From a virus, in IMG/VR virus record IMGVR_UViG_3300050821_002957, positions 271,192 through 335,191 of that record: a DNA stretch of 64,000 bases; one strand, given 5' to 3'. Under the pieces are notes generated by a model that was given only the letters and a program-made list of their open reading frames with translations, searched no databases and was not told where the DNA came from. Positions within the stretch are counted from its first letter, which is position 1, and every line of letters starts with the position of its first letter. Positions 15,866 to 30,797 of the stretch are shown here, one piece after another. A program made the position numbers and the translations under genes.

Positions 15866-16261
15866 TCAGTTCTCGATACGCTCTTCCCAGATTTTCAGCA
15901 CTTTCATGAACTGTTCATCGAGTTCCGGCGACTCTCCAATGGTAATTTTCCGACCCATGAGCTTACTGACTTCGGCGATACTCTGGTCCATTTTTTTGGT
16001 CGCACGCACAATGTCGAGTTCATGTAGATGATCGAAGTTCTTGGCAGTCTTCCAGATTTCTGCTTCAGCCTTCACGTCTACAATACTACGGTTGATCCAA
16101 TCGAAGATGGCCTTGTACTGACGTTTGTTGCTTCGGCGTTGAACTAGCGCCAACAACTTTTCACGATTGGTCTGAAGTTTACACAAAAGGGAGTGGAGTT
16201 CGATACGTCGAGCAGCCTTGTAAATTTGAAATTGCAACCATGTGCTCATTTCACGTCCCAT
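15866..16261 (-). CDS. hypothetical protein
   Basis: 131-aa ORF in a minus-strand operon. Confidence 0.35.
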   Translation of the reverse strand: MGREMSTWLQFQIYKAARRIELHSLLCKLQTNREKLLALVQRRSNKRQYKAIFDWINRSIVDVKAEAEIWKTAKNFDHLHELDIVRATKKMDQSIAEVSKLMGRKITIGESPELDEQFMKVLKIWEERIEN

Positions 16262-16896
16262 CCTTTCAGGAACAAAGACAAGACTACACGTTCGAGATTT
16301 CGTAAGGCTTCGTTGGAATCGGTAGCAGGCGCAGGATCGAGTTCAATTTTGTCACTGACCACCTGGGGCACATTTGTCGTCGGAACAAATGTTTTGCAAC
16401 GATTAATTGGTTGATGCCAGACGTAGGTCTTTCCCGCAATCTCGACGACGAAACGGTAGCACAGGGTATCTGTCTCAAAGACAAGATTGGAGACGAACCC
16501 ATTATCGTACAGATACCAAATGAAATTGGTTTTTAGGTCGTAGGCTTTATTGTTCGTTGCCGCCGTGAATTTTTTCGCCTTGATGTGCTTGTTCAGATCG
16601 TAGCACGCCTCACACCCGGCAGCGACGACATCTTCAAAAAGCATCCCACCGAGCGCCTCAAGTTCTCGTTCCGCCACCTTACGAAGCTCGACAACAAACT
16701 CAGGAGATTGCTTTGCAGTAGCGATAGCACTCTGCGGAAAGAATACTATGCCCGAGGCATCATTACGTTTGACCGGCGCACCCAACAGAGCGATCATGCC
16801 TTTGGTCCAGTTTTTACCCCGAAACGTATTGATATCGAGTGGATCATTAGTGCCGAAGTGATTGACAGACACCAGATAATTCGGAAACCCTTTCAT
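16246..16896 (-). CDS. hypothetical protein
   Basis: 216-aa ORF. Confidence 0.35.
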   Translation of the reverse strand: MKGFPNYLVSVNHFGTNDPLDINTFRGKNWTKGMIALLGAPVKRNDASGIVFFPQSAIATAKQSPEFVVELRKVAERELEALGGMLFEDVVAAGCEACYDLNKHIKAKKFTAATNNKAYDLKTNFIWYLYDNGFVSNLVFETDTLCYRFVVEIAGKTYVWHQPINRCKTFVPTTNVPQVVSDKIELDPAPATDSNEALRNLERVVLSLFLKGWDVK

Positions 16897-17150
16897 GCCT
16901 TTTTCTCCTCTAAGAATACAGTGTAACCGTATCGGTACATACCAAACAATTGCCCATCTTCATCCGTACCAGTAGAGATCATGTGAAATGCTCTGTCACC
17001 CATCACAATGATCATCGGGATATGGTCTAGCTCGACGGTACGAACTTCGTCATGCAGCCCATCACGAAGATACAGGCGCATCTGTTTTGGTTTCATGCTT
17101 TCACTCCGAAAATCTTTTTCAAAATCCAGACAGGCGGATGATCCAACCAT
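16893..17150 (-). CDS. hypothetical protein
   Basis: 85-aa ORF overlapping the next gene's stop by 4 nt. Confidence 0.3.
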   Translation of the reverse strand: MVGSSACLDFEKDFRSESMKPKQMRLYLRDGLHDEVRTVELDHIPMIIVMGDRAFHMISTGTDEDGQLFGMYRYGYTVFLEEKKA

Positions 17151-17422
17151 GCAAGATCATTGGCAAATGGACATTCATCCTGGCGCAAAGAGGACTCATA
17201 ATACTTGGCAGCGGCAACCGAAATGCTTGTTGATTCCACCCAACCATCACACTTTGAATACGTCATGTGAATGTATTCTAGAGCTTCTTCAGCGGTGCGG
17301 CCTCTGGTGAGCACCGTGCCAATACGGGAATGTGAGAAGCTCCACAGCAAATACTTCTCACCATTCGGAACGTACCGGAATTCAAGTTCTCGGCACTCTT
17401 CTGTTGTAAGCCACTTCATCAT
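17093..17422 (-). CDS. hypothetical protein
   Basis: 109-aa ORF. Confidence 0.3.
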   Translation of the reverse strand: MMKWLTTEECRELEFRYVPNGEKYLLWSFSHSRIGTVLTRGRTAEEALEYIHMTYSKCDGWVESTSISVAAAKYYESSLRQDECPFANDLAWLDHPPVWILKKIFGVKA

Positions 17423-18519
17423 TATTTCACCCCTGCAAATTGTTCGATCATTGCTTGCTGGGAAGGCTGACCGGCCAGCGGATTCGCCGACGAAGGCTTC
17501 ACACCCTTTACCAGCCGCACATTGTGGAACGTCGTCGGATACTGATTGAAGCCTTTTCCGTGGACACTGTAGTTGCAGATCACTTTGTTGCGAACAGTGA
17601 AGCTCGATCCATCGGCGAAGTGAAACACAATCTCGCCCTGAAAGCCTGCGCCATTCACATGACCCTCGATGATTTCGGGAATGACACCGGAACCGAAACC
17701 GCTCATGATCATCTGATTGTCTTTCGCTTCAAGAACGACGGCCAGCTTGGTGACGTTTTTGTAGAGGAACATACGCTGGGCATAATCGGCGTCCTTCTGA
17801 GCGATCTTGCGGAGCAGATCCTTGAAATTTGGAACGAGGCGAGTATAGTTGCCGGTGTGCGAATCCCATCCTTCGCCTACAGTCTGTAACAAGAAATCGG
17901 CAGAGGTCGGCGTATATCGTTCGTTGCGTGTGCGAGGATGGTCCATGCGATATTGAACCGAAGAGACGAAATTGTTGAACAGGATGTCTTCGTACTGGAG
18001 GGTCAGACCGTCTGTCATGTCCTTCAGAACTTTCGTGACGAGGATTGCCGCTTCGGTGGTCGGCATCGGCGGAACGTAATCGTCGGCCTTCTCTTCTTCG
18101 CTGCGCCCGACACGCTTCACAATTTTGTCCTTCAGGAGCATCAGCGCATCATACAGGTCAACGATCTCAGCGCAGACGGCGAACCATTGAGCATTGTCAA
18201 ACTTCTTCTTTTTGGCGAGCTTCACTTTTCCGGCGACTTGATTGCCGTACATGAAAGTCAGATCGAAGGTATAGTTCTCGACCTTGGGAAAATGATAGGC
18301 AGCGCTAAAGGCTTCGCTGTACAGTCCACGATGGCTGTCCTCTGCGATACTGACGACGGTATTGAGTGCTTCTTTGGCGCTCTTGAATTCAGGATTGGGG
18401 ATCGAATCGGTGTAGGTGTTCAGAGCATTGACGACCGTCTGGAGGGCTTTCTTGCCCCAAGACGATTGATTCGCTTGGCAGGCGGCGTTCAACAGCGGGT
18501 ATTGATCTACGCTCTTCAT
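17422..18519 (-). CDS. hypothetical protein
   Basis: 365-aa ORF. A promoter TTGACA-N17-TATTCT preceded by AGATGCATCT lies at 18526-18575. Confidence 0.4.
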   Translation of the reverse strand: MKSVDQYPLLNAACQANQSSWGKKALQTVVNALNTYTDSIPNPEFKSAKEALNTVVSIAEDSHRGLYSEAFSAAYHFPKVENYTFDLTFMYGNQVAGKVKLAKKKKFDNAQWFAVCAEIVDLYDALMLLKDKIVKRVGRSEEEKADDYVPPMPTTEAAILVTKVLKDMTDGLTLQYEDILFNNFVSSVQYRMDHPRTRNERYTPTSADFLLQTVGEGWDSHTGNYTRLVPNFKDLLRKIAQKDADYAQRMFLYKNVTKLAVVLEAKDNQMIMSGFGSGVIPEIIEGHVNGAGFQGEIVFHFADGSSFTVRNKVICNYSVHGKGFNQYPTTFHNVRLVKGVKPSSANPLAGQPSQQAMIEQFAGVK

Positions 18520-18593
18520 GAAACTAGAATAGCAAACCTACCCTACCATGTCAACAGTAGATGCATCTTTTTCTGGAAGGAATATTTTATCTA

Positions 18594-18624
18594 CCTCTTG
18601 ACATATTGACGGCTGGTGCGCTAT
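18594..18624 (+). promoter_or_regulatory. sigma70-like promoter
   Basis: It reads TTGACA-tattgacggctggtgcgc-TATGCTGG. The -10 context TATGCTGG is the same as in the promoter at 10139. Confidence 0.4.
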
Positions 18625-18685
18625 GCTGGTACTGTCAAAGAGAGTCCCATTTTCAACGACTTACGTCCGTTGATAAATACTCTCC

Positions 18686-19090
18686 ATGAAAACCTTCCTC
18701 GAATTTATCTTGACCGAGAATGCCATGTTACCGGGCGTTGCTGGCGTAATGAAACACCAACGGGACAATGGTTTAGCCAAGGTAGGTGTTCATCCCAATT
18801 TTGCTGCCATTAAGAAGCAGCGTGAAGATAGCATCAACAAAGTTGGCACCCATCCAAATTTTGCTGAAATCTTACGTCGGCGTCAAGCAGGTCAAATGTC
18901 GGAAGAAGAAATGAACGAACTGCTTGGTCTATTCAAAAAGAAAAACGATGCAAAACCCTCGCCGTTTGCCAAACCAAAAAACGCAATTGGACATGGTGAC
19001 AAGGCTTATCGCACGAACCACCATTATGGGAACGGTGACATCGAACCATCCACCGTTCCTATTTTCAAACCAACTTGGCAGAATCGTTAG
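18686..19090 (+). CDS. hypothetical protein with an internal duplicated motif
   Basis: The segments VGVHPNFAAIKKQREDS and VGTHPNFAEILRRRQ are repeated. Confidence 0.35.
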   Translation: MKTFLEFILTENAMLPGVAGVMKHQRDNGLAKVGVHPNFAAIKKQREDSINKVGTHPNFAEILRRRQAGQMSEEEMNELLGLFKKKNDAKPSPFAKPKNAIGHGDKAYRTNHHYGNGDIEPSTVPIFKPTWQNR

Positions 19091-19629
19091 AAACGTCTCG
19101 GACACGCTGGCGGCTTCGCACAATCACCGGGTCCACCATTGTCCTTGGTCACTTTTTTGTTGGGAACTTTCTTCGGCTTTTTGACCGGCGACAATTGATG
19201 TGCATCGAAGTATTGAACGTCAGTCAAAATGCCTTCATGCAGTTTTGATGATTGCAGACCGACTCGCTGTGACGACGTAAAAAATTTGGACAATGAAATC
19301 GCAACACCTTCAAAATCTGAAATGCTGTCTTTGTACGTGTCGCCGAGTACGATCATATCCGGCTCTTCTTCATATGAAATCACTGCGGCCCCAGGTTGTT
19401 CTTGGAGAAGCTGTTCGTCAATGTAGAATCCGTCCATCGGCCCACCGTCAGCCTTGAGACCCGGAGGCTGAATTGCCACTCGGACGCACGCATACAGGAA
19501 AGTTGTGCGAGAGACAGCGACACCTTTAAGTCCTGAAATGGGATCTTTGTATGTTCTGCCGAGCGTTGCTACTTCTGTCGCTGCGGTCTTCAAAACGTTT
19601 TCACGATCAATTGGTTTGGAGTTTGCCAT
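19087..19629 (-). CDS. hypothetical protein with a duplicated module
   Basis: The segments YKDPISGLKGVAVSRTTF and YKDSISDFEGVAISLSKF are repeated, and the C-terminal tail is basic. Confidence 0.35.
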   Translation of the reverse strand: MANSKPIDRENVLKTAATEVATLGRTYKDPISGLKGVAVSRTTFLYACVRVAIQPPGLKADGGPMDGFYIDEQLLQEQPGAAVISYEEEPDMIVLGDTYKDSISDFEGVAISLSKFFTSSQRVGLQSSKLHEGILTDVQYFDAHQLSPVKKPKKVPNKKVTKDNGGPGDCAKPPACPRRF

Positions 19630-19674
19630 GTGTCGAGAGTAACATGATGGCTATAGGTGTGTCAATAATTTTAA

Positions 19675-19762
19675 TGGCTGGAGGAGCAGGACTCGAACCT
19701 GCATATGAGCTTTCGCTACGACACATTAACAGTGTGCTGCCTTACCGTTAGGCGACCCTCCA
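19675..19762 (-). tRNA. tRNA with a GTT (Asn) anticodon loop but a long, type-II-like variable arm; CCA encoded
   Basis: Hand fold: acceptor TGGAGGG/TCCTCCA, D-arm GCCT-AACGGTA-AGGC, anticodon loop CTGTTAA, an 18-nt variable region with an AGC-GAAA-GCT hairpin, T-arm GCAGG-TTCGAGT-CCTGC, then G and CCA. Confidence 0.45.
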
Positions 19763-19783
19763 ATATAAATGGATGTATGGCAA

Positions 19784-20217
19784 ATTCACAGAAAGTAAAA
19801 GAATGGCGCAAAAGAACCAAACAACGAATGATTGATGCAATGGGTGGATCGTGTGTAGTCTGTGGCTACACTCGTTGTTCAGCCTCATTAGGATTTCATC
19901 ATCTCGATCCGAGCAAGAAACATTTTGGTTTCGGAGGTCTTCGTGCCAACCCAAAATCTTGGGAGAAGATCAGCGAAGAACTACGAAAATGCGTTCTGAT
20001 TTGCAATCGTTGTCACGGAGAAGTACATGATGGTATAACCATCATTCCCATTAATGCAAAACGGTACGACGAAAGTTATGCTCAGAAATTTGGAAGAAGA
20101 AAAATGGCTCCGGGGACAGGACTCGAACCTGTAACATCCGCTTTAACAGAGCGGCGCTCTACCATTGAGCTACCCCGGAATGAGGTTGCTTCTTTGGTTA
20201 GGGTCACGCCGTTTTAA
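19784..20217 (+). CDS. HNH homing endonuclease
   Basis: Motifs CVVCGY...HHLDP...CNRCHGEVHDG are present. The gene lies between two tRNA genes and its 3' end overlaps the antisense tRNA at 20105-20179. Confidence 0.65.
20105..20179 (-). tRNA. tRNA-Asn (anticodon GTT), CCA encoded
   Basis: Hand fold: acceptor TCCGGGG/CCCCGGA, D-arm GCTC-AATGGTA-GAGC, anticodon arm CCGCT-CTGTTAA-AGCGG, T-arm ACAGG-TTCGAGT-CCTGT, discriminator G, CCA. Confidence 0.65.
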
Positions 20218-20260
20218 AGCGTGACCTACGTATTGTAGGTTGTGTAAGTCATCACAATTC

Positions 20261-20268
20261 TATTTATA
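20261..20268 (-). promoter_or_regulatory. TATAAATA late-promoter-like motif within a conserved 28-mer
   Basis: The 28-mer GTCATCACAATTCTATTTATACCACGGT recurs at 22351-22378. Both copies lie upstream of minus-strand tRNA genes. Confidence 0.35.
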
Positions 20269-20520
20269 CCACGGTGTTTTGAAACTGTCAACCTTTTATT
20301 TTACATTGACTCCGATCATTCGTCATACCGATCCATGAATTCTCTAACGTCATCAATACGAATTACAAACAAAATGATGAACAGAGGACCGCCGATGCAA
20401 AATAACACTCTGGCAGTTTGCTCCATGTCCATTATCATCTCAAAGAACCCCGCAAGAAAAAGCAAAATGAATGCCAGCCGCCAGCAATTCTTCCAGTTGA
20501 TCTTCACATAATCGAACATG

Positions 20521-21456
20521 TTACACCACCAAATCTTTGGGCAAGCGTTCAGTCCGTGCAATCTCTTCTGCGGTCGGTTTGATCACATTGCCGACGATTC
20601 CACCGAAGATTGCTCCGACCGTATCTGTGTCGCCACCGACCTCAATGAAGCTGTTGATGCAGGATGCGAACGAAAGACCTTTTTCCAAAGCCTGATGTGC
20701 CTGCCATAATGCAAAAGGAACTGTATCGACTGCCGTTACTTCTTTGCCGTTTCCAACCTTGCCAATTATTCCCCAATTGGTTTCGTTAAATGCACCCTCA
20801 CTGGCGACCCATTCGATGCGATCACGAAGTTCCCCTGATGGTGTGTATTTGATGATGTTTAACCAGAAGTCTTCCTCAGGTCTTCCATAAGTTACGTTTG
20901 CTGCGGCTATGGCGACCGCTATCGAACCGGCAATAGCATCGACGTGATAATGGGTCACTTCGGCAGATAGACGTGCTTCTTGCGCTACAAGGCCATAGTC
21001 AGGTCCAAAGTGTGCGCCAATGACAGCATCACGCATTGCCGATCCGTTGCCTTTTGAGCCGATGCCCGGTCCCCACCAATTCTTGCTATGCTCAAGCCAA
21101 TTGTCGGAGTCATAGCTATAGGTCGTCAACAAACCACGAGTGCCACGCCCATAACCACGCTGAGGATCAACATGAAAATTACGAGCTAATTCCTGAGCGA
21201 GTTCGAGTTGATTGATCGTATTGAATCGGTACAAAGTTCTAACGACACCAATACCGACATGTGTGTCGTCTGTCCAGGGATAGAGAATGTCAATTTTTGT
21301 GATCCCTCGTTCAGTGGCGACATTCCCAGCCTTGTAATATTCAGCCGGAAGAATCTTCATCTGATTTTCGCCTGCTGCATCGCCTACCGACAAGGCAAGA
21401 AGCGAAAGATAAGTTTCTTTCTTTTTGTACTGCATCGGAGCAAGACAGGGTGTCAT
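20521..21456 (-). CDS. ADP-ribosylglycohydrolase (ARH/DraG family)
   Basis: Several ARH motifs are present: LSVGDAAGE, PWTDDTHVG, GNGSAMR and GGDTDTVGAIFGGIVG. Confidence 0.8.
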   Translation of the reverse strand: MTPCLAPMQYKKKETYLSLLALSVGDAAGENQMKILPAEYYKAGNVATERGITKIDILYPWTDDTHVGIGVVRTLYRFNTINQLELAQELARNFHVDPQRGYGRGTRGLLTTYSYDSDNWLEHSKNWWGPGIGSKGNGSAMRDAVIGAHFGPDYGLVAQEARLSAEVTHYHVDAIAGSIAVAIAAANVTYGRPEEDFWLNIIKYTPSGELRDRIEWVASEGAFNETNWGIIGKVGNGKEVTAVDTVPFALWQAHQALEKGLSFASCINSFIEVGGDTDTVGAIFGGIVGNVIKPTAEEIARTERLPKDLVV

Positions 21457-21463
21457 ATTTCAC

Positions 21464-21676
21464 CTACTTGGTCGGTTTGTGCCAACCATATGCATGTTGA
21501 GCGGTCTTTGGCTCATATCCTAGAACGAGGTTACAGTTGGCAATACATTCGTCAAGATGACCGTCGCCTTTGTGAGTTGGATCTTGCAAAAATTGAAGTG
21601 CATGACGAATTGCTTGGCGTGCAGATCGAGCTTCGTTTTGCAGACGTTGAATTTGTTCTTCTATAGTTTCTACCAT
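21464..21676 (-). CDS. small hypothetical protein
   Basis: 70-aa ORF. Confidence 0.3.
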   Translation of the reverse strand: MVETIEEQIQRLQNEARSARQAIRHALQFLQDPTHKGDGHLDECIANCNLVLGYEPKTAQHAYGWHKPTK

Positions 21677-21999
21677 GTCTTAGTGTTTGTCCTCCACCAC
21701 CCAAACAGATAGCATACCACGGCGTAGATAATTGTCCATTCACCAGCAGTGAGAAAGAATGTGCCGCATCCTATCGTAGGAGTATCGAATGACAAGTTTG
21801 CAAAGAAGGCTTTTCCAAGACAAACAGCGAGACCGCCAAAATAAACAGCGGCAAAGAAGAGTTCACTTGGTCGAGGTACGGTGATATTGGGCCACTTCAT
21901 ATCCACAATGTTCGCACCGATCACCAGGGAAGTCAAGTTTTGCGCCTTGATGTAGATGAGCTTCTTGATTTGGATTGTCGGGCGTGCAGATAGTTTCAA
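21670..21999 (-). CDS. small membrane protein
   Basis: Hydrophobic helices in 109 aa. Confidence 0.3.
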   Translation of the reverse strand: MKLSARPTIQIKKLIYIKAQNLTSLVIGANIVDMKWPNITVPRPSELFFAAVYFGGLAVCLGKAFFANLSFDTPTIGCGTFFLTAGEWTIIYAVVCYLFGWWRTNTKTW

Positions 22000-22101
22000 T
22001 GCCGGTAAACTTTGTGTTTGGATCGAAACTGAAATTTGGATCTAATTTGTAAATCATAGCAAGAAGTATATAGCACTTCTAAGCCAATGAAATTAAGGTT
22101 T

Positions 22102-22175
22102 TGGCAGGAGTGGTAGGAGTTGAACCCACGCTAAAGGTTTTGGAGGCCCTTGTGCTACCGTTACACCACACTCCT
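22102..22175 (-). tRNA. tRNA-Trp (anticodon CCA)
   Basis: Hand fold: acceptor AGGAGTG/CACTCCT, D-arm GTGT-AACGGTA-GCAC, anticodon loop CTCCAAA, T-arm GTGGG-TTCAACT-CCTAC, G and CCA. Confidence 0.6.
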
Positions 22176-22191
22176 GTGATGAGGAAGATTA

Positions 22192-22267
22192 TGGCCGCTG
22201 GTTCCAGTTACGCTCTGGACTCTTCTGTTCTTCAGACAGACGCTTTCACTAGATTAGCTTACCAGCG
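22192..22267 (-). tRNA. tRNA-Phe-like (anticodon loop CTGAAGA) with a non-canonical T-loop
   Basis: Acceptor CGCTGGT/ACCAGCG, then G and CCA. The anticodon arm is TCTGT-CTGAAGA-ACAGA. The T-arm is TCCAG-AGCGTAA-CTGGA and lacks the TTC motif. Confidence 0.45.
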
Positions 22268-22288
22268 GTGTTGTGCTTTGAGAGAGGC

Positions 22289-22327
22289 GCAACGACTGCT
22301 GGTTTCAACAGCAGTCGTTGCGCCCCG
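22289..22327. other. perfect 16-bp inverted repeat (hairpin with a 7-nt loop)
   Basis: It reads GGCGCAACGACTGCTG-gtttcaa-CAGCAGTCGTTGCGCC. It lies between the conserved TATAAATA 28-mer and the tRNA-Phe-like gene. Confidence 0.7.
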
Positions 22328-22369
22328 GTGGTAAATCGCCAATATGTAAAAGTGCGTGTCATCGTAATT

Positions 22370-22377
22370 CTATTTAT
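22370..22377 (-). promoter_or_regulatory. TATAAATA late-promoter-like motif (second copy of the conserved 28-mer)
   Basis: GTCATCGTAATTCTATTTATACCACGAT lies upstream of the tRNA-Phe-like and tRNA-Trp genes. Confidence 0.35.
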
Positions 22378-22553
22378 ACCACGATCATTGCTGTCTGTCA
22401 ACAATGAAATTCTGTGTCGTGAACAAATGGTTCCTCGGATGGGAGCGGTATCATAGGCAGTGATAATCCCACCTGATTCCCCGGCTCACGACAAAATAAC
22501 AAGGCCACTCGGAAGTAGCCAAGATCCCTTGGTACACATGGTAACAGGGTCTA

Positions 22554-22793
22554 CTATTCGTGAATGATTTCGCCTATCACTCGTTCTGGCATTAGCTTCT
22601 CAGGCGGGACACTTCCATTCATAAGGTCAACCATGCGCTGTGCTTGAGCTAGAGTGTGAAAGGTTCCATACGGTGTGACATGTGCTCCACCGTCGCCAGA
22701 ACCTACTTCAACCAAATCATACTTCGTTTCCGTCTTCGGCCAAATCTCGTACCTAATTTTCTGTTCGGTCGATGACTTGTTGACGAATTCCAT
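22554..22793 (-). CDS. small hypothetical protein
   Basis: 79-aa ORF. Confidence 0.3.
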   Translation of the reverse strand: MEFVNKSSTEQKIRYEIWPKTETKYDLVEVGSGDGGAHVTPYGTFHTLAQAQRMVDLMNGSVPPEKLMPERVIGEIIHE

Positions 22794-23735
22794 AAATGTG
22801 TGTCGGTGTTAAGGCACACCGAGCAGGCCGCAAGATTTTGTTACTGATCAATACCTGCTAAGAACCAGGATGTTTAAGAACTTATCCTTGAGAAAGCTCC
22901 GTTGTAGGCGACACGGCTTCCCTGAGAGTCAGAGTTACTTCAGCTACTCCTGATGGTATGGTGACTCAGCTACCCCGACTTTTTAGTGATCGGCTCCATT
23001 CCGGTATTCGATTCGGCAACGACAGATTCCGACTCTGCAACGTTCTGCTTCTTTTCGATGAGAAGCAAAAATCATAAAAACTCAAAATGACCAGAGGACC
23101 CTCAGCAGTGAGCGCAGATCCCACGTTCGCATACAAGCGTCAATGACAAGTTTTATCCAACGAGCCATTGTCTTGTACGTTGGCTCACCGTCGAGTGCGC
23201 TATCCAGTTCGACACACTCACCTGCGGTTCTAATGACTTTCGTCTCCCGCTGGCCCTATCATCGCCTCACACTTCCGTGTGTTTCAACATCCTGGTCATC
23301 TCAAGGGCGACAGCCTTGCGGCCACGACACCCCACCAGCTTTTTTACTGTGTACTGATCACAGGGAGAGCTAGAACGACTTTCGCCGCCCCACACCTACC
23401 GCCACTGGTCGAGACTTCTACATGCGACCAGCCATGTCGCTAAAAGGGGCACTACGAGTAGATGCCCTCCACCACGTTGTTCTTTTACGTCCAACAACGA
23501 AACGACTTAGACCCATAACTCTGACCGGAAATCAGAACTATGATCCACACTCCCCGGTGGAAGCCGGGAAGACTTTGAATGTGAACTAATAATTGACAAG
23601 GGATTATAGCCCCGAAGGACCATTTCACCATTTGAAAGATAACCCTCATCTTCCGGCTCACATCACGAAATACGGCTGCTTGTCCTACCATTAGACGACC
23701 GGATCTGCCGACGCTTTACGCCATGAGAGCAGATT

Positions 23736-24060
23736 GGACTCCGACCGGGACTCGAACCCGGATTTCTCAGCTAGACGAATGACGGAGCATAGTGCGCTCT
23801 ACGTCGGAATTGGTGGATACACATGGGAATTGAACCCATAACCTTCTCGGTGCAAGCGAGTTGCTCTCCCAATTGAGCTAGTGACCCATAACTTTGTACC
23901 TCGAACAAATAAGTATCAGAGGGCTTGTCATTAGGAAAGATAACCCTCTAAATCCGGCTCGAAGCACTACAAAACTTTTGGTGGATCGCCAGGGATTTGA
24001 ACCCTGCTGTTATCCTCGGTGCAAGCGAGGCAAACACCCCAAGCATTTCCGCAACCCACA
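23736..24060 (-). pseudogene. three degenerate tRNA-like elements (tRNA pseudogenes or fragments)
   Basis: One element has a T-arm CCGGG-TTCGAGT-CCCGG with the D-arm GAGC/GCTC but an unfoldable anticodon region. A second has an Ala-like loop CTTGCAC with an acceptor of only 5 of 7 pairs. A third has a clean 3' half (anticodon arm, T-arm, GCGATCC-A-CCA) with no matching 5' acceptor strand. Confidence 0.35.
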
Positions 24061-24278
24061 TTTAAATAGCACGAACAAATAGCGGTAGAAGACTGATAGG
24101 AGACTGCATTTAACGCACCCTCGGATTGGATACCGATCAGATACGCTTCAAACTCCCCTCCTCAAAGTTACGGGCGTCTTTTACTACACGTACAACGAAC
24201 TGCTTTGTGCCCACCAAATACTGCCGGTGAACTTTGTCATGGTTAGGTAACCTTCCAACCAGCGGCTCGTGCTATGTC

Positions 24279-24340
24279 GAAACAGAACGAAACAGAACGA
24301 AACAGAACGAAACAGTGCTCAACGATGCGAAACAGTGCGT
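24279..24340. repeat. 10-bp tandem repeat (CGAAACAGAA)x3 followed by two CGAAACAGTG units
   Basis: Directly visible as cgaaacagaacgaaacagaacgaaacagaacgaaacagtgctcaacgatgcgaaacagtgcg. Confidence 0.8.
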
Positions 24341-24421
24341 TAGGTCAAAGATCGTATTCTTTATCTATACACGCTACAGTTTGCTTTCAATAGCGCCTTT
24401 GACTCTTTCAGTCTAACATCC

Positions 24422-24691
24422 TTAGTATGGGATGTCAAGTGCCACGAACATAATAATTTCATCTTCGTCTTTTTTGCGACGAGCAGCAGCTTCTTTCTCA
24501 GTCAACACCAGAGGAGACGGATTGCCTTCGACTTTGATATTCACTGATAAACCTTGCTGGAGCCATCCAGATACTTCATCGGGCGGCGTCTCGACAAATG
24601 CCTGATCACACGCCTTCTGAATTTCGACATTGCGTATTGCAGCAAGCGGTTTGCCGGATGGCGTCATGATGTCTACGTTACAAAGAAGCAT
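24422..24691 (-). CDS. hypothetical protein
   Basis: 89-aa ORF. Confidence 0.3.
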   Translation of the reverse strand: MLLCNVDIMTPSGKPLAAIRNVEIQKACDQAFVETPPDEVSGWLQQGLSVNIKVEGNPSPLVLTEKEAAARRKKDEDEIIMFVALDIPY

Positions 24692-24693
24692 GT

Positions 24694-25023
24694 TTATCTA
24701 CCAACTGCTACGGCTGAAATTCCGATAACACTTTCAATATTGTACAACAGACGAGCGGCTTCTGACAATTCTGAGCCGGTGCGATCCAGTGTAGCATGGA
24801 CGCCGGTCGGATCAGAATCAGCTTTTGAGTCATCGTCTTCTCCGGTGTATTGAAGAACATCTAACACCGTTTTTAAGCGACGAGCCAACATCCTAGCCAA
24901 TTGCAAATTTGCATCCGAAGAAGATTGAATTGTCGTTGGTTCGTGGTTCTTTTCTGCTGGACCGTCAACAACTAATCCAAACTTCTCTAATAAAACTTTG
25001 TTTCCTTTCTTTCCTGTATTCAT
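24694..25023 (-). CDS. hypothetical protein
   Basis: ORF trimmed to the internal Met (MNTGKKGNK) so that it does not overlap tRNA-Ile. Confidence 0.3.
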   Translation of the reverse strand: MNTGKKGNKVLLEKFGLVVDGPAEKNHEPTTIQSSSDANLQLARMLARRLKTVLDVLQYTGEDDDSKADSDPTGVHATLDRTGSELSEAARLLYNIESVIGISAVAVGR

Positions 25024-25029
25024 AATTTT

Positions 25030-25105
25030 TGGTTGGCCCAGATGGAATCGAACCATCAACCTCAGAATTATCAGTTCTGCGCTCTACCAATTGAGCTATG
25101 GGCCA
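25030..25105 (-). tRNA. tRNA-Ile (anticodon GAT), CCA encoded
   Basis: Hand fold: acceptor TGGCCCA/TGGGCCA, D-arm GCTC-AATTGGTA-GAGC, anticodon arm CAGAA-CTGATAA-TTCTG, T-arm GATGG-TTCGATT-CCATC, discriminator A, CCA. Confidence 0.7.
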
Positions 25106-25190
25106 ACATACTCAGAAGTAGTTATACTAGCGGCGAATCATTAGTGGAGGCCCAATAATCCGCCGCCAGTTTTACAGAATCAACCAAAAA

Positions 25191-26984
25191 CTACTCTTCG
25201 GTCTCTTCTGCGATCCCAGCACTTGAACCACGAATAAAATCCGTAACCAATGCTGGAACATTCGAGTCGAACCCAACGATGTCCAAAGAATACGGGTCCT
25301 TCGGATCTGCGATGGTAAATTGCGTAGAAACCATTCCCATCACGATCAGGCGCACATCATCCTGCCCACGATGCTTACGATACTGCTTGAGAGCCTGCGA
25401 CGGTTGCATTTGTCCAGCCCAAGTCTCATTATCCGTGATCACCATGAAAGCGTCTGCGTCGATGCCAGCCTTTTGAGCGTGAAGCATCGGTGCAGCACAA
25501 TCGGTTCCACCAGCCGACATGCGAGAGGTCTTTGCCAACGCAGTCTTCAGAGTGTCCTTTGCGGTGATGCCAATTTCCTGCATTCCCGTAGAAAATGCAT
25601 AGATAGCGTAATTCGGTTCCGTGCGAGCCACAACCATCGCCATTGCTGCGCCTGCTTGTGCTGCCGTGATTCCGGTGCCTTGGATGATGCTGGACGCCCA
25701 CGACATAGAACCAGAAACGTCCATGCCAATGTACGTAGCCTTACCAGTCGGAATTGCGTTTGCGAATGCCAAGTAGAACGTGTTCTCTAAAGCGTCCACA
25801 ATGGTCGGTACAACGGTCCAGGTCGCATCGCTGCGCTGACCGTGGCCTTGGCCGTAGGTGCCTTGTGCCAACAATACCTGGAGCGGGTGAATCTTGCTCT
25901 TCTTGACGTAGGCTTCATCGTTCAAACGAGACACGACGAGCTTCGATGCTGCCGACAGCGGCTTCAAGAGACCAATCTTCGACATGGTTCCAAGATTACG
26001 AACCATTGCAGTTACCGGCATCTTCTGAAGCAGAGCTTCCCAGACTTCCGGTTGCGTCTTAAACTGCGTCGGAATCATTTCGTGAGTCAATCCACCGTCG
26101 ATGATGCACTTTACGATAGTGCTCGTATCCGTCGCCTTCTTTGCGGTTTCATAGGCGGTGATCAACTTCGGTGCGTTCGATCCGGTCAACAAATCATAAG
26201 CGTTCTGATAGCGAGCACGCTGATTCTGAATTTCCGCAGAAGTCAGATCAGTCGTGCGATGGCTGTTGCCCTGCCACTTCTTGACAGAACGAGTCCAGTT
26301 CTGAGCAGCTTCGTTCAAGGCATCGAGACCACCGAAACGACCCCAAGCCAGCAAAGCACTCTTCATCGGATCAGTCGCCTTGACGTGTGCGAGGCTGACG
26401 AGATCACGAGTGGACCAGCCATCACGCTGTTGATACTTCGCCAACTGATAAGCCAGCGAATCTTCCGTGCGTTCGGTGTACCAGTTGCCGATTGCAGTCT
26501 TTACACCACGACCGTATCCACGCATGGAATCGAGGTACTCGTTGAAGTGGAACATGTGAGTACCGATACGTGCAACCTTGCTCAATTGCGACAGAGCATA
26601 AGCAGCAGTTTCAGCCGAACCAAAATTCGGTGTTGCGGCAACTGCCAGGGCAAACAATGCCGGATCGTTCTTCGGAGCACGGCCTGCTTGCGAAATGTTG
26701 ACGATCATATCGACCGTGCGCTTTCCATCCAACTGCAAGCACGCACGAACGTTCGCTGCGTTGTCTACAGTCATCTTCTTGGCAGATGCATAGTACGTCG
26801 GCGCATCGCTACCGAGAATCAAAAATCGTTCGAGCATCTGGAAGGGAGTGATGGTGAAGGTGTATCCACCAGCGTTGTTCTGCTTCATCTCTGCTTCCCG
26901 GCCCGGAATTGCCTGCGACTGTGATGTCTTCTTGCCGCTTAATACCGTTGCGTAATTGCTCTTTGCTGATCCTGCCTTTGCCAT
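25191..26984 (-). CDS. rsr: Ro60/Rsr orthologue (TROVE domain plus C-terminal vWA domain)
   Basis: The TROVE-like N-region (GGYTFTITPFQMLERFLILGSDAPTYY) is followed by the vWA MIDAS motif YIGMDVSGSM. A GGAGA SD sits 7 nt upstream of the ATG at 26984. The longer ORF start in the track is probably not used. Confidence 0.75.
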   Translation of the reverse strand: MAKAGSAKSNYATVLSGKKTSQSQAIPGREAEMKQNNAGGYTFTITPFQMLERFLILGSDAPTYYASAKKMTVDNAANVRACLQLDGKRTVDMIVNISQAGRAPKNDPALFALAVAATPNFGSAETAAYALSQLSKVARIGTHMFHFNEYLDSMRGYGRGVKTAIGNWYTERTEDSLAYQLAKYQQRDGWSTRDLVSLAHVKATDPMKSALLAWGRFGGLDALNEAAQNWTRSVKKWQGNSHRTTDLTSAEIQNQRARYQNAYDLLTGSNAPKLITAYETAKKATDTSTIVKCIIDGGLTHEMIPTQFKTQPEVWEALLQKMPVTAMVRNLGTMSKIGLLKPLSAASKLVVSRLNDEAYVKKSKIHPLQVLLAQGTYGQGHGQRSDATWTVVPTIVDALENTFYLAFANAIPTGKATYIGMDVSGSMSWASSIIQGTGITAAQAGAAMAMVVARTEPNYAIYAFSTGMQEIGITAKDTLKTALAKTSRMSAGGTDCAAPMLHAQKAGIDADAFMVITDNETWAGQMQPSQALKQYRKHRGQDDVRLIVMGMVSTQFTIADPKDPYSLDIVGFDSNVPALVTDFIRGSSAGIAEETEE

Positions 26985-27059
26985 ATCATTATCTCCTATG
27001 ATACCTAATTTTTTCGACTTCACCAGAATAACACATGCCTGATTGTTGTCAAGCATGTA

Positions 27060-27398
27060 TTATCCAATATCACCTGCTCCATCTTTGTGACGTAAGATCA
27101 CTTCTTCAGCGATCATGTACGCCAAGACTGCAAGCTGTTCGTAATACTTCATGGTCATATCGATGATTTCGTCGATCTGACTACGTGTTGCGATGATACG
27201 AACCGGAATCATTCGTTCCTCAAACAGCGTCTCTTTAAAAATCCACTGTCCTTTCGCAACCGGCATGATCGTCAAACCACCAGAAATTGTACGCACCTTT
27301 TCATCCCAGATTTTGTGGAATCTGGTTCTGATCGGACGACCGTCATTCCGCATTGTCGGAACGAGAATCTCCCACATCGATTTTTTGGTGCTATTCAC
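27060..27398 (-). CDS. hypothetical protein, probably translationally coupled to rsr
   Basis: 112-aa ORF ending about 75 nt upstream of the rsr start. Confidence 0.35.
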   Translation of the reverse strand: MNSTKKSMWEILVPTMRNDGRPIRTRFHKIWDEKVRTISGGLTIMPVAKGQWIFKETLFEERMIPVRIIATRSQIDEIIDMTMKYYEQLAVLAYMIAEEVILRHKDGAGDIG

Positions 27399-27429
27399 AC
27401 ACCCACCATAACATGTAGATGTGTCTTTG

Positions 27430-29018: not shown

Positions 29019-29618
29019 CTACTCTTCTCTCGGACGAGGCTTGACGATCTTGTCGATGATGCCGTATGCCAGTGCTTCTTCGGCATCCATGATGTAGTCA
29101 CGCTCAAGATCCTTCTCGATGCGCTCAATCGGCTGACTTGTCAAATCAACCATCATGTTGACCAGACGCTTCTTGGTCTTTAAAATATGTTCGGCGTAGA
29201 TCGCAATGTCTGTAGCCTGTCCACCAAGACCGTACATCGACGGCTGGTGAATCATGACCTCAGCACCAGGAAGAGCAAACCGCTTGCCCTTGGTGCCACA
29301 CATCAAGATTGATGCACCCATCGAAGCTGCACGACCGACACAGGTAGTCTTGATATCGACACCGACGAGGTTCATGGTATCAATGATTGCCATGCCTGCG
29401 GAGATCGATCCACCCGGCGAATTGATGTAAATCTGAATGTCTTTCTCAGGATTTTCGGTCGAGAGATAAAGTAACTGTGCGACGACAGCGTTCGCAACAT
29501 AGTCATCAATCGGTGTTCCCAAGAAAATGATATTGTCTTTCAACAGACGTGAGTAAATATCATACGCACGTTCACCCTTGTGATCCGATTCGATTACGAT
29601 TGGAGTAAGCATTGACAT
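29019..29618 (-). CDS. clpP: ATP-dependent Clp protease proteolytic subunit ClpP
   Basis: It has the catalytic Ser context [11 protein letters not shown], the His context MIHQPS and the ClpP N-terminal region [13 protein letters not shown]. Confidence 0.85.
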
Positions 29619-29856: not shown

Positions 29857-30264
29857 CTACTTCAAATTCAGATCCTTACGAATCTTGTCAATCTTGTTAT
29901 TGGTAACTCGATTGTACTCGGACATGATGCGTTTCATAATCGTCCTGAACGATATCTGCACGATCAAAAAAAACATCGCTAACGGCCAGCAAATGACATC
30001 ATAAGCAATTTCCCCACGAAAATCAATTGCTTTCGGTGGTACAGCTTTTAGACGTATGTTGTTTTTTACATAATTCCGCCATTCATAGATGAGAAACTCT
30101 GGGATATTTTCACCCCGAATCCTATGAAACAACAAGAATCGTGCTCGTTCTGCCTCATAGAATCCAATCTCATCATCGACGTACAGCTTCCACCTGATGA
30201 ACCCCCATAAAAAACCCACGGCTGCATAACCAAACACAGCCAGGACATAGTAAAAAATTTTCAT
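29857..30264 (-). CDS. membrane protein
   Basis: An N-terminal TM helix and a second helix are present in 135 aa. Confidence 0.3.
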   Translation of the reverse strand: MKIFYYVLAVFGYAAVGFLWGFIRWKLYVDDEIGFYEAERARFLLFHRIRGENIPEFLIYEWRNYVKNNIRLKAVPPKAIDFRGEIAYDVICWPLAMFFLIVQISFRTIMKRIMSEYNRVTNNKIDKIRKDLNLK

Positions 30265-30797
30265 TGCGGCTCGAAGAGAATGACGTGTATGTTATCAAGC
30301 TCCTGTAGTCTATCATAAACCAATGCCTTTACGTCAACAAAATTCAGACCACCATTCGCACAACCTAACGCAGGCATCGCAAGAGACTTGATGAGTAAAC
30401 CTGACTTCAGCCGGTCCTTCAAATCATCGAGGCCAGCGGCGATCCATTCTAGTTTTGATCCATTTCTCCAATCGTCTTTCGTCGGAAAATTGATAATGAA
30501 TTCGTTGATCTGAGATGTTTGATAGTGTTCACATCCGCAGGCACACCACAACCCCTGATCATGGGCGTCAAAATCACATTCACAAAGACAGTCAGGGATT
30601 TCATGCCAAACCCAAACCTTACCAGTCTGAATGTACTTGCGAGCGCACAATTTCCTGTATTCGACGTACATGTCAGGATAACGCTGCTTGAACTGGAGTG
30701 CGATACCTTTGCCCATCACGCCGACACAATTCACAGTGTTGACGATAGCTTGTGCGCCGCAGTCGAAGAGGTTACCAGTCGTTCGTGTTTCGATCAT
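30261..30797 (-). CDS. macrodomain protein of the TARG1/DarG type (ADP-ribose hydrolase) with a Cys-rich insertion
   Basis: GNLFDCGAQAIVNTVNCVGVMGKGIALQFKQRYP resembles TARG1 GDLFSCP...CRMGAGIAVLFKKKF. The C-terminal LAMPALGCANGGL resembles LSMPRIGCGLDRL. An insert CLCECDFDAHDQGLWCACGCEH is present. Confidence 0.65.
   Translation of the reverse strand: MIETRTTGNLFDCGAQAIVNTVNCVGVMGKGIALQFKQRYPDMYVEYRKLCARKYIQTGKVWVWHEIPDCLCECDFDAHDQGLWCACGCEHYQTSQINEFIINFPTKDDWRNGSKLEWIAAGLDDLKDRLKSGLLIKSLAMPALGCANGGLNFVDVKALVYDRLQELDNIHVILFEPQ

Follow-up and report, generated by a model that had tools for sequence, protein, structure and literature searches.

Ro60/Rsr gene and its neighbourhood

The window (the whole 64 kb stretch of DNA that was analysed) encodes a tail protein, an SbcCD-like nuclease, a helicase, a CCA-adding enzyme, TyrRS and many tRNAs, and its source is thus the genome of a large phage. 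On the minus strand, the following protein genes were identified:

29019-29618, minus strand: ClpP (family match 3.2e-75), upstream of Ro60
25191-26984, minus strand: Ro60/Rsr, in a reading frame open back to an ATG at 27056

The initial annotation had read the product of 25191-26984 as Ro60/Rsr from a TROVE-like N-region and a C-terminal vWA MIDAS motif, and had called for a comparison with TROVE and vWA profiles. Both profiles matched (Pfam TROVE, 2.9e-40; vWA_Ro60, 2.2e-57), the MIDAS signature DxSxS is present as D446-x-S-x-S within GMDVSGSM, and the sequence clearly identifies the protein as a Ro60/Rsr orthologue with a TROVE ring and a vWA/MIDAS domain. The best solved structure among the PDB sequence matches was Rsr of D. 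radiodurans (2NVO, 4.7e-105); human Ro60 (9NEN, 1.1e-96) and Xenopus Ro60 (1YVP, 2.9e-92) were matched as well. The block KYxQRxGWSxxDLxxLxH is kept, and with it the residues that correspond to K170, R174 and H187 in the alignment. The full open reading frame (25191-27056, minus strand) comprises 621 aa, and the start noted earlier, 26984, corresponds to the internal M25. Since conservation with the closest relative (locus L081, 67% identity) begins at residue 31, M25 is the likely start.

The gene context was also as described before: ClpP and four ORFs without a family match are located on the Ro60 strand, upstream of the gene, and the arrangement is not that of rsr-rtcB. RtcB had no match among the 17 scanned ORFs of at least 200 aa in the window, a set that comprised all ORFs of at least 350 aa except the antisense ORF 25842-26924 (plus strand) inside the Ro60 gene; nor was PNPase found among the ORFs scanned.

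Four candidate Y RNAs downstream of Ro60

The motif GAGCCGG-N(3-14)-GGRWTATC was observed three times in the window, versus 0.01 expected. A covariance model trained solely on other Ro60 loci (R2) picked out exactly four elements of the 64 kb (E-values from 1.6e-13 to 7e-4), each on the Ro60 strand; the next best match was 10.7 bits (E 1.6). The elements are:

24066-24275, minus strand: Y1, candidate long Y RNA of ~210 nt (descriptor scan; R2 26.5 bits, E 8.6e-5)
23896-23967, minus strand: Y2, candidate short Y RNA of 72 nt (R2 58.9 bits, E 1.6e-13)
23578-23664, minus strand: Y3, candidate short Y RNA of 87 nt with a branched loop (R2 43.0 bits, E 3.1e-9)
22415-22493, minus strand: Y4, candidate short Y RNA of 79 nt (R2 23.1 bits, E 7e-4)

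In each of Y1-Y4 the 5' and 3' ends pair into a terminal stem of 8-11 bp, at the top of which GAGC, a bulged C and GG (GC in Y1) lie opposite UU(N)GUUC. This stem top with its bulged C is the predicted conserved docking site for Ro60. Above the terminal stem follow an internal loop, a covarying upper stem and the motif UUAYC, and the distal domain is variable, ranging from about 20 to 150 nt. Y1, which was never part of any seed alignment, combines a terminal stem of 11 bp, GAGC-C-GC opposite UUUGUUC, the upper stem UGGAAGG/UCUUCUA, UUACC and an insert of ~150 nt that is not tRNA-like; in its orthologues (L081, 4082-4294; L083, 2197-2410) the docking module is kept and the insert has diverged. 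Y2, Y3 and Y4 (72-87 nt) resemble YrlB or sbRNAs. Y2 folds with a z-score of −4.8 and scored 34.6 bits (E 1.5e-4) with the Rfam nematode sbRNA family RF01656, of which the gathering score is 38. The folding z-scores of Y3 (orthologue L083, 3171-3259) and Y4 (orthologue L081, 4615-4682, 47 bits) were −2.2 and −3.0, respectively. For each of the four elements, orthologues were found in contigs with a Ro60 of 64-65% identity. In alignment A3, which was fitted to the model and for which seeds were chosen for having the closing helix, 90.5% of the cells are paired, versus 31-52% with the partners slid, and both sides vary in 14 of the 16 pairs; a MAFFT-only version was also made. Promoter and terminator scans gave results at chance level.

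The same module accompanies Ro60 elsewhere. Among 80 viral Ro60 loci, 57 had at least one R2 match and all 98 matches were on the Ro60 strand, at a median distance of 150 nt upstream or 306 nt downstream of the gene (maximum 2993 nt); in 44 metagenomic Ro60 loci the strand agreed in 190 of 190 matches. In Mycobacterium phage Catera and Streptomyces phage Beuffert the R2 matches adjoin Ro60 and overlap sub-threshold Rfam YrlA matches. R2 recognises three elements upstream of Ro60 in Catera, one of which overlaps an Rfam YrlA match, and the modules therefore belong to the same family of docking modules as YrlA/YrlB.

We consider it highly probable that the phage carries Ro60 together with four cognate Y RNAs of the bacterial/phage Yrl family, forming one RNP module. 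The spacing counts against this reading: Y1-Y4 are located 916-2776 nt downstream of Ro60, within a tRNA island, which exceeds the typical distance; one tRNA and two ORFs lie between Ro60 and the Y RNAs. One could instead regard Y1-Y4 as functionally unrelated to Ro60 and as belonging to the tRNA island itself, whether as repeats or as structured spacers (for example attenuators, signals for processing or hairpins in decay), given that the region is full of duplicated, decaying tRNA fragments and that the folding z-scores of Y3 and Y4 are moderate. We give hardly any credence to this possibility. The module lies on the Ro60 strand in all 288 matches, in loci as distant as those with 36-47% identical Ro60; it is present in 57 of the 80 viral Ro60 loci, versus any tRNA in 25, and in most of those that are free of tRNAs. 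Furthermore, it fits the docking helix contacted by Ro60 in Y RNAs (PMC4201824), and RF01656 nearly reaches its gathering score on Y2.

tRNA island and the search for a tRNA mimic

The other elements downstream of Ro60 are:

25126-25170, minus strand: 19-bp hairpin, within the 85-nt spacer directly after the Ro60 stop codon
25030-25105, minus strand: tRNA-Ile(GAU) (ARAGORN; Rfam tRNA 75.5 bits)
24278-24315: 10-nt tandem repeat, CTGTTTCGTT on the minus strand (TRF score 76, 3.8 copies, 100% matches)
23979-24057, minus strand: degenerate tRNA-Ala(UGC)-like element (ARAGORN only)
23815-23887, minus strand: tRNA-Ala(UGC) (ARAGORN; Rfam 51.1 bits)
23735-23809, minus strand: tRNA-like element recognised from sequence and fold, with a 7-bp acceptor stem and T-arm CCGGGUUCGAGUCCCGG
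22286-22324, minus strand: perfect 16-bp hairpin (inverted pair I1; fold z −7.6)
22195-22267, minus strand: tRNA-Phe(GAA)-like gene (Rfam tRNA 39.7 bits)
22102-22175, minus strand: tRNA-Trp(CCA) (ARAGORN; Rfam 57 bits)

Except for tRNA-Ala 23815-23887, which is new, this inventory bears out the initial annotation, which had listed a tRNA-Ile 85 nt after rsr on the same strand, a stem in the intervening spacer, tRNA-Trp, a tRNA-Phe-like gene with an abnormal T-loop, degenerate tRNA-like elements, a perfect 16-bp hairpin and a 10-bp tandem repeat. The tRNA-Ile starts exactly 85 nt past the Ro60 stop. The spacer hairpin (−31.1 kcal/mol, z −5.14) has no U tract and is probably a 3' stabiliser or processing stem; a hairpin of unrelated sequence occupies the same position in L083. 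The tandem repeat (repeat family D1) abuts the 5' end of Y1 and could be a regulatory site. The Ala-like element, in which a proper D-arm is lacking, contains a G3:U70 pair and encodes CCA; Rfam tRNA gave no match to it at E≤10, and the element and the next tRNA-Ala have identical anticodon arms (D8). The element at 23735-23809, called by neither ARAGORN nor Rfam tRNA, has a D-like hairpin and a UCCA end, lacks an anticodon stem and weakly matches the tRNA-like mascRNA family (16 bits). Further tRNA remnants are found near 22900-22975 and 23504-23523. In the Phe-like gene the T-loop is AGCGUAA instead of UUCGAAU (Rfam alignment), and a normal tRNA-Phe is present at the syntenic position in L081. 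The 16-bp hairpin lies upstream of the Phe-like gene and tRNA-Trp and is preceded by a box, TTGGCGATTTACCA(A/C)CGGGGC, that is common to L081.

It had been proposed that the Y RNA module lies within the flanking 3 kb, is of the YrlA type and has its Ro60 partner among these elements. The location held, with Y1-Y4 on the Ro60 strand. The listed candidates (tRNA-like genes, post-rsr stem, 16-bp hairpin and repeat) have no Ro60-binding helix and no R2 match; neither the spacer hairpin nor the 16-bp hairpin is a Y RNA. All four Y RNAs are elements absent from the earlier list.

That the partner would be a YrlA-type tRNA mimic (22195-22267, 23979-24057, 23735-23809, the hairpins or the repeat) now appears very unlikely. 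The idea draws on three or four arm-defective tRNA-like elements in the island, all with an encoded CCA, and on YrlA itself, which mimics tRNA and in M. smegmatis is cleaved by RNase P and acquires CCA (PMC4201824); in addition, 23690-23760 contains a T-arm, a hairpin and the D-arm-like UCGUCUAAUGGUAGGACA, in the permuted order of YrlA. However, the candidates lack the bulged Ro60 helix, and besides Y1-Y4 nothing exceeds 10.7 bits with R2. The Rfam YrlA model gave no match at E≤10 in 21800-25400 and 23560-24290, although it detects true YrlA-type members in related loci at 32-44 bits, and no YrlA-type tRNA-mimic domain was detected with Rfam in Y1-Y4. Segment 23665-23815 folds no better than shuffled sequences (z 0.04), and the Phe-like, Ala-like and Trp genes correspond in position to ordinary tRNA-Phe, -Ala and -Trp in L081/L083, so that these resemble tRNA genes, or copies of them in decay, more than domains of a Y RNA. 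Of the Ro-binding stem plus tRNA-like module that was anticipated in the flanking 3 kb, the predicted docking stems were recovered and the tRNA-like domain was not.

Alternatively, Y1 with the Ala-like element and Y2 with tRNA-Ala might stay unreleased as two-module RNAs, a docking hairpin followed by a tRNA(-like) domain; the tRNA module would then be appended in cis, whereas it is loop-inserted in YrlA. The spacers are just 8 nt (24066 to 24057; 23896 to 23887). Two copies of the unit made up of Y RNA, spacer and tRNA-Ala are present (D5, D8; spacing 169-170 nt), and past Y3 there is a third one, in decay (D10, D11). Y1 is likewise followed by a normal tRNA-Ala in L083 (5-nt spacer), and the Beuffert Y RNAs lie 2-5 nt from tRNAs. 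We nevertheless find the composite very doubtful. RNase P normally cuts at tRNA 5' ends and would split the modules; the tRNA past Y1 is largely deleted in L081, where the T-arm alone is left, which makes the linkage dispensable; and direct adjacency is not general, because a tRNA or tmRNA lies within 20 nt downstream in just 5 of the 98 viral-locus Y RNA matches.

Comparison with known Ro60/Y RNA systems

The pairing of Ro60 and Y RNA in phages is already known, and the window probably encodes another phage Ro60/Y RNA RNP, with Y RNAs that resemble those of metazoans and alternate with tRNAs. Same-strand Y RNAs within 4 kb of Ro60 have been reported for 254 bacteria and 22 phages (PMC4201824). 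YrlA/YrlB loci (Salmonella, M. smegmatis and mycobacteriophages; RF02553, RF02565; PMC4201824) share with the window the location within 4 kb on the Ro60 strand, the presence of several Y RNAs in short YrlB-like and longer forms, and a GNCGAA-type 5' motif. The published motif GNCGAAN0-1G is not matched exactly: the window has GCCGGA, GCCGGA, GCCGGG and GCCGCU, with G or C at position 5 instead of A. Chen et al. 2014 found that every species examined has a tRNA-like domain in one or more of its Y RNAs (PMC4201824), whereas the T-arm/acceptor/D-arm domain is absent from each of Y1-Y4. Conservation of the bulged helix extends to both its strands in the window, while the 5' strand alone is recognised in Salmonella and M. 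smegmatis (PMC4201824). Unlike YrlA/YrlB, the Y RNAs of the window are downstream of Ro60 and tRNA-interleaved, and their scores are far under the Rfam gathering scores (YrlB 16 bits versus 97).

Ro60 of Thermus phage phiLo binds two phage Yrl RNAs in a ternary complex with host PNPase (PMC12135203; PDB 9KOP, 9L5Y). As in the window, a phage Ro60 has more than one nearby phage Y RNA-like partner, and the stem-bulge-stem design and CGAA-type motif of Yrl1/Yrl2 are similar; the phiLo RNAs are two and upstream of the gene, whereas those of the window are four, downstream and inside a tRNA island. phiLo Ro60 was not among the PDB sequence matches of the window protein at E≤1e-3, and the two proteins are therefore distant. 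The Rsr/Yrn1/Yrn2 system of D. radiodurans (RYPER; PDB 2NVO; RF01053) resembles the window in retaining both strands of the Ro60-binding helix, but Yrn1 has its own tRNA-like domain. RF01053 gave no significant match in the window and just 20 bits in one related locus.

Metazoan Y RNAs and nematode sbRNAs (RF01656; PMC4726728) have the bulged-C stem GGUCCGA/UUGACC, for which the window has GAGCCGG/UUGUUC, and likewise an upper stem followed by UUAUC. The RF01656 consensus UCGGUCCGGAGUCGAUGGGUUAUCAU nearly coincides with that of R2, UCGGGCCGAAGUUAAUGGGUUAUCAU. Whereas all window elements are under the gathering score of this family, one relative (L105, 4012-4081) scored above it with 43.4 bits. 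Animal Y RNAs are Pol III transcripts with a La-bound 3' oligo-U tail, which the window does not encode, and the animal UUAUC is tied to the initiation of DNA replication, with no obvious phage counterpart.

Proposed mechanism

By analogy with Xenopus Ro60/Y RNA, the RYPER of D. radiodurans and Salmonella, and Thermus phage phiLo Ro60-Yrl, the bulged Y RNA helix would bind to the outer surface of Ro60 and the Y RNA would gate the central cavity. In the RYPER of D. radiodurans, Y RNA reportedly tethers Ro60 to PNPase. The variable distal domain would similarly recruit an effector, for which PNPase, a 3'-5' exonuclease of the host, is the likeliest choice; the identity of the effector is a guess, because PNPase and RtcB are both absent from the window ORFs scanned. 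In the course of infection the RNP may then trim or break down RNAs that are structured or misfolded, and the four distal domains may confer four specificities. Polycistrons of tRNA and Y RNA are the probable source of the Y RNAs, from which tRNA-processing enzymes would free them; the 3' ends of Y1 and Y2 each stop 8 nt short of a tRNA-Ala-type element.

The Ro60 protein

The gene in question comprises an open reading frame of 621 aa (25191–27056, minus strand). The start at 26984, adopted in the initial annotation, corresponds to M25 and is likely, because similarity to the closest relative begins at residue 31. Assignment of the protein as a Ro60/Rsr orthologue is upheld by two Pfam domains, the TROVE domain (HEAT-repeat ring; residues 59–398, PF05731, E 2.9e-40) and the Ro60-type vWA domain (residues 442–608, PF25045 vWA_Ro60, E 2.2e-57), by a MIDAS motif (D446-V-S-G-S within GMDVSGSM, plus GGTDC and ITDNE), and by full-length homology to proteins of solved structure, D. 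radiodurans Rsr (2NVO, 4.7e-105) and the human (9NEN, 1.1e-96) and Xenopus (1YVP, 2.9e-92) proteins. The block KYxQRxGWSxxDLxxLxH is retained, with K207, R211 and H224 as alignment equivalents of K170, R174 and H187; we take K170 and R174 to be residues of the Y RNA surface and H187 to be a cavity residue of Ro60. The orthologue has an intact ring, a vWA/MIDAS domain and a conserved RNA-surface block.

Four predicted Y RNAs downstream of Ro60

Rfam searches of the window at gathering thresholds returned tRNAs only, and at E≤10 neither Y_RNA nor YrlA was matched between 21800 and 25400. One near-threshold match, to the nematode stem-bulge RNA (sbRNA) family RF01656, a set of Y RNA homologues, was found at 23898–23966 (−) with 34.6 bits against a gathering threshold of 38 (E 1.5e-4). 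This element and two others have GAGCCGG...GG(G/A)UUAUC in common (3 observed versus 0.01 expected). Two scans were performed: (i) a structural descriptor specifying a terminal helix, a bulged C, G-R paired to UU, and then a helix-closing G; and (ii) the motif plus the helix. Together they yielded four elements on the Ro60 strand.

Candidate Y RNAs of the window, with score and E-value for R2 (a covariance model built from other Ro60 loci only) and orthologues in the closely related loci L081 and L083.
Y1: 24066–24275 (−), 210 nt, terminal helix 11 bp; R2 26.5 bits, E 8.6e-5 (absent from every seed alignment); orthologues L081 4082–4294 and L083 2197–2410
Y2: 23896–23967 (−), 72 nt, terminal helix 11 bp; R2 58.9 bits, E 1.6e-13; orthologue L083 3093–3159
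Y3: 23578–23664 (−), 87 nt, terminal helix 9 bp; R2 43.0 bits, E 3.1e-9; orthologue L083 3171–3259
Y4: 22415–22493 (−), 79 nt, terminal helix 10 bp; R2 23.1 bits, E 7e-4; orthologue L081 4615–4682

Y1–Y4 lie 916–2776 nt downstream of Ro60 on the minus strand, within the same-strand criterion of ~4 kb (PMC4201824). The 5' and 3' ends pair in all four (GAGC-C-G(G/C) with UU(N)GUUC, stems of 9–11 bp); the bulged C is followed by GG in Y2–Y4 and by GC in Y1, and the outer pairs of the terminal stem vary between copies (CUUC/GAGG, AUGU/ACAU, UCGU/ACGA). Above the docking helix follow, in order, an internal loop, an upper stem, UUAUC (UUACC in Y1) and a distal domain, which is ~20–40 nt in Y2–Y4 and ~150 nt in Y1. 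This plan is that of the end by which Y RNAs bind Ro60; in vertebrate Y RNAs the corresponding helix pairs GGUCCGA with UUGACC and likewise bulges out a C. In place of the exact bacterial 5' motif GNCGAAN0-1G described by Chen et al. (PMC4201824), the window has GCCGGA (twice), GCCGGG and GCCGCU. At the A-to-G position, which pairs with U, 77 family sequences have A (37), G (27) or another base (13), and the window motif is read as a purine variant of the published one. Y1–Y4 are very probably the cognate Y RNAs of Ro60. Promoter and terminator scans gave counts at or below shuffle expectation.

Covariance models and association with Ro60 loci

A scan with the Ro60 protein provided 80 IMG/VR viral loci (36–46% identity), and the descriptor and motif scans revealed the Y RNA module beside Ro60 in many of them. 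A first model (R1) was built on an alignment of 26 short examples (A2), three from the window and 23 from the loci; in plain MAFFT the lower helix of A2 was 98% paired and the upper helix 75%, compared with 43–50% in slid controls. At E≤0.01, R1 matched the 80 viral loci 98 times, always on the Ro60 strand, and 57 of the 80 loci contained at least one match. The matches were located upstream (78, median 150 nt) or downstream (20, median 306 nt, maximum 2993 nt) of Ro60.

R2 was rebuilt from the 98 locus sequences only and run with filters off over the whole 64-kb window, where it returned exactly four elements; the next best match scored 10.7 bits (E 1.6). Over 77 distinct locus sequences, 90.5% of the cells were paired versus 31–52% after sliding, and 14 of 16 pairs had changed on both sides, numbers that are somewhat inflated because this alignment was fitted to the model. 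Helix 1 is 93–98% paired, with double changes at 5–8 of its 10 pairs. Conserved positions are G5-G7, C9 (the bulge, 94%), G10 (100%), G22-G23, U24 and U25 (100%), A26 (96%), Y27 and C28 (99%), U164-U165 and G167. When R2 was applied to 44 metagenomic Ro60 loci, all 190 matches were on the Ro60 strand. Covariation, strict linkage to the Ro60 strand and the orthologues all speak for the four docking-helix RNAs, and a simple covariance model recovers Y RNAs beside most Ro60 genes.

Related loci and cultured phages

The closest relatives (L081–L083) came from the metagenome scan and have a Ro60 that is 64–65% identical. The Y1 orthologues retain an almost identical docking module, and their 150-nt insert is unalignable; a conserved structure in the insert was considered and dropped, as the window version is too diverged from those of L081 and L083 to align.

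R2 also detected elements beside Ro60 in cultured phages: three, just upstream of the gene, in the Mycobacterium phage Catera, five in the Streptomyces phage Beuffert and one in Phosso. One R2 element each in Catera and Beuffert overlaps a sub-threshold Rfam YrlA match, which places the window elements with the phage and bacterial Y RNAs of the published Yrl family. Annotation of Ro60 itself is frequent in phages (363 phage records), and their Y RNAs go unannotated: the GenBank records of Catera, Beuffert and Phosso contain no ncRNA features.

In many metagenomic loci, Y RNAs of 105–160 nt are arranged in tandem directly upstream of Ro60 and on its strand, with up to about ten per array (L099 3884–4717, L115 3135–3935, L108 2299–3112, L125 427–1249, and others); a limited literature search turned up no description of arrays of about ten. 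A tmRNA (113 bits) or permuted tmRNA (71 bits) was present on the Ro60 strand in two loci (L055 4084–4509 and L058 9472–9696), that of L055 beginning 18 nt after a Y RNA.

YrlA-type domains and tRNA-like elements

The initial annotation had sought a YrlA-type partner among the tRNA-like elements, the hairpins and the 10-nt repeat. Its reading of the region as a Ro60 and Y RNA module stands; none of the candidates it named scores with R2, and no YrlA-type domain was detected in the window. The YrlA tRNA-like domain (RF02553: T-arm, acceptor hairpin, D-arm) had no match at E≤10 in 21800–25400 or in 23560–24290, the loops of Y2–Y4 are too short to hold such a domain, and inspection of the Y1 insert by eye disclosed no T-loop or D-arm consensus. 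The Rfam YrlA model scores 32–44 bits on the long members of L058, L105, L072, Catera and Beuffert. A T-arm, hairpin and D-arm-like order at 23690–23812 suggested a permuted tRNA-like YrlA domain, which was rejected: no Ro60-binding helix flanks it, neither R2 nor YrlA matches it, and its fold is no better than that of shuffles.

The tRNA-Phe-like, tRNA-Ala-like and tRNA-Trp genes match the positions of ordinary tRNAs in L081 and L083, and the unit Y RNA/8-nt spacer/tRNA-Ala is present in duplicated and decaying copies (repeats D5, D8, D10 and D11). On this evidence, tRNA genes or their remnants in a dynamic array are the best interpretation of the aberrant tRNA-like elements. Y1 and Y2 are each followed by a tRNA-Ala-type element at a distance of 8 nt, and Y2 starts 11 nt after such an element; Y-tRNA spacers are 2–5 nt in L083 and Beuffert, the neighbours in the latter being tRNA-Ile and tRNA-Ser. 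From this close spacing it is plausible that the Y RNAs are matured from a polycistron by tRNA-processing enzymes. That a downstream tRNA always sets the Y RNA 3' end was rejected, since only 5 of the 98 viral-locus matches have a tRNA or tmRNA within 20 nt; the pattern holds for Y1, Y2 and some elements in L001, L025, L055, L064, L083 and Beuffert.

Several further features of the island were recorded. An ORF-poor stretch of ~780 nt (22794–23577, minus strand) between Y3 and a small ORF has no Rfam match at E≤10 and contains tRNA remnants; one at ~22900–22975 resembles the 5' half of the L081 tRNA-Phe and another, at 23504–23523, copies the spacer plus the start of tRNA-Ala. The same stretch holds a hairpin, CCAGC-N13-GCUGG (~23325–23352, loop like ACACGUAAAAAA), which recurs about four times in L083 (3290–3620) and once in L081 (~4500–4530). 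The 10-nt tandem repeat (24278–24315) abuts the 5' end of Y1, and a different direct repeat, GAACGCCAAGCGATCC and GGACGCCAAGCGACCC, is found upstream of the Y1 orthologue in L083 (~2110–2160); these repeats may be protein-binding sites controlling the ncRNA array. A conserved box, TTGGCGATTTACCA(A/C)CGGGGC, at 22326–22346 (−) and at ~4887–4910 in L081, leads into a long hairpin immediately 5' of the tRNA-Phe(-like)/tRNA-Trp pair; the sequence of the hairpin differs and its position is kept. All tRNA and tRNA-like genes read in the island (22102–25105) have an encoded CCA.

Resemblance to animal Y RNAs and nematode sbRNAs

The R2 consensus of the family, UCGGGCCGAAGUUAAUGGGUUAUCAU...CCCAUUUGCAACAACUUGUCCG, is nearly that of nematode sbRNAs, UCGGUCCGGAGUCGAUGGGUUAUCAU...CCCAUCGACACCAACUUGACCG, and both strands of the bulged helix as well as the UUAYC motif are conserved across the family. 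An element of L105 (4012–4081) scores 43.4 bits with RF01656, above the gathering threshold, and one of L058 (8465–8577) scores 35.6 bits, next to 34.6 for Y2. The likeness of Y2 to RF01656 is genuine; membership is not claimed, its score being below 38. A weight matrix of the 5' half, constructed from viral loci only, gave 18–19 bits for human Y1, Y4 and Y5, in register at position 1, a score reached by 0–1 of 2000 shuffles; the comparison serves as a lead only.

Kowalski and Krude deny homology between the Y RNAs of bacteria and those of vertebrates, and describe UUAUC as an animal motif required for DNA replication (PMC4726728). UUAUC, which is treated in the literature as specific for animal Y RNAs and sbRNAs, is common to the L105, Y2 and L058 elements. 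In view of the bulged-C docking helix (both strands) and UUAUC after the upper stem that they have in common, the short phage and bacterial Yrl RNAs could share direct homology with the Y RNAs of animals and the sbRNAs of nematodes, a relationship we consider rather unlikely. The family found here makes the statement of non-homology worth re-examining. If homology were true, UUAUC would be an ancient element of the Ro60 RNP, older than its role in metazoan DNA replication, and phages, with their mobile tRNA/Y RNA arrays, could plausibly carry Ro60/Y RNA modules from one lineage to another.

Proposed mechanism and relation to published systems

Xenopus Ro60 makes its contacts on the 5' strand of the bulged helix, Ro60 of D. 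radiodurans and of Salmonella is tethered to PNPase by a Y RNA, and in the Thermus phage phiLo two phage Yrl RNAs are bound by Ro60, which assembles with PNPase of the host into a ternary complex (PMC4201824, PMC12135203, PMC4726728). By analogy with these characterised systems, each Y RNA of the window would dock on Ro60 through its terminal helix and gate the central cavity, and an effector, probably PNPase of the host, would be brought in by the variable distal domain; in infected cells the resulting RNP would act on structured or misfolded RNA by degradation or trimming. We rate the chances of the PNPase tether specifically at somewhat under even.

Phage Ro60 and Y RNAs have been known since 2014, with structural characterisation in 2025, so the existence of a Ro60/Y RNA RNP in phage is already established and the advance made here is incremental. 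The analysis goes a little beyond the published accounts consulted in describing a lineage with four Y RNAs, none a tRNA mimic, and likewise a little in the conservation of the two-strand helix and UUAYC, the relative above the sbRNA threshold and the lead from the human matrix. The locus offers a clean and compact case, with one Ro60, four Y RNAs with different distal domains, orthologues and no tRNA-mimic domain. It makes testable in phage which effectors are recruited by the different Y RNA loops, whether Y RNA maturation is coupled to tRNA processing, and what the role of the UUAYC motif is.

Genome context

The window is from a large phage, as it encodes a tail protein, a helicase, an SbcCD-like nuclease, a CCA-adding enzyme, TyrRS and seven tRNA genes.

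Genes of the window outside the ClpP-Ro60 block, and tRNA genes.
5722–6819 (−), ClpX/ClpA-like AAA+ ATPase (AAA_2 + ClpB_D2-small)
10472–11722 (−), CCA-adding tRNA nucleotidyltransferase
14104–25105, tRNA genes (at least seven)
20521–21456 (−), ADP-ribosylglycohydrolase (ARH)
30261–30797 (−), macro-domain protein
39533–40681 (−), tyrosyl-tRNA synthetase

Every sequence feature listed in the initial annotation was found at its position: tRNA-Ile 85 nt downstream of Ro60 (with a 19-bp hairpin in the spacer, z −5.1), tRNA-Trp, the tRNA-Phe-like gene with T-loop AGCGUAA, the perfect 16-bp hairpin, the 10-nt repeat (3.8 copies) and several degenerate tRNA-like elements. Upstream of Ro60, on the same strand, are ClpP (3.2e-75) and four ORFs without family match. 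Megablast of 22000–27100 against 50,697 phage records gave no near-identical DNA, and thus no annotated close relative among those records.

The gene order common to the close relatives is macro, o135, o61, ClpP, o83, o112, Ro60, ncRNA island, o109 and ARH. A conserved protein partner beside Ro60 was looked for and rejected: o112, o83, ClpP, macro and ARH recur only in the three closest contigs, with the exception of the macro-domain ORF, which also matches in L001. The macro-domain protein and the ADP-ribosylglycohydrolase flank the ClpP-Ro60-ncRNA island block, an order kept in L082 and L081, and may be a counter-defence pair that reverses ADP-ribosylation. The ClpX/ClpA-like ATPase is located ~22 kb from the phage ClpP (29019–29618, minus strand), and the phage may bring a complete Clp protease.
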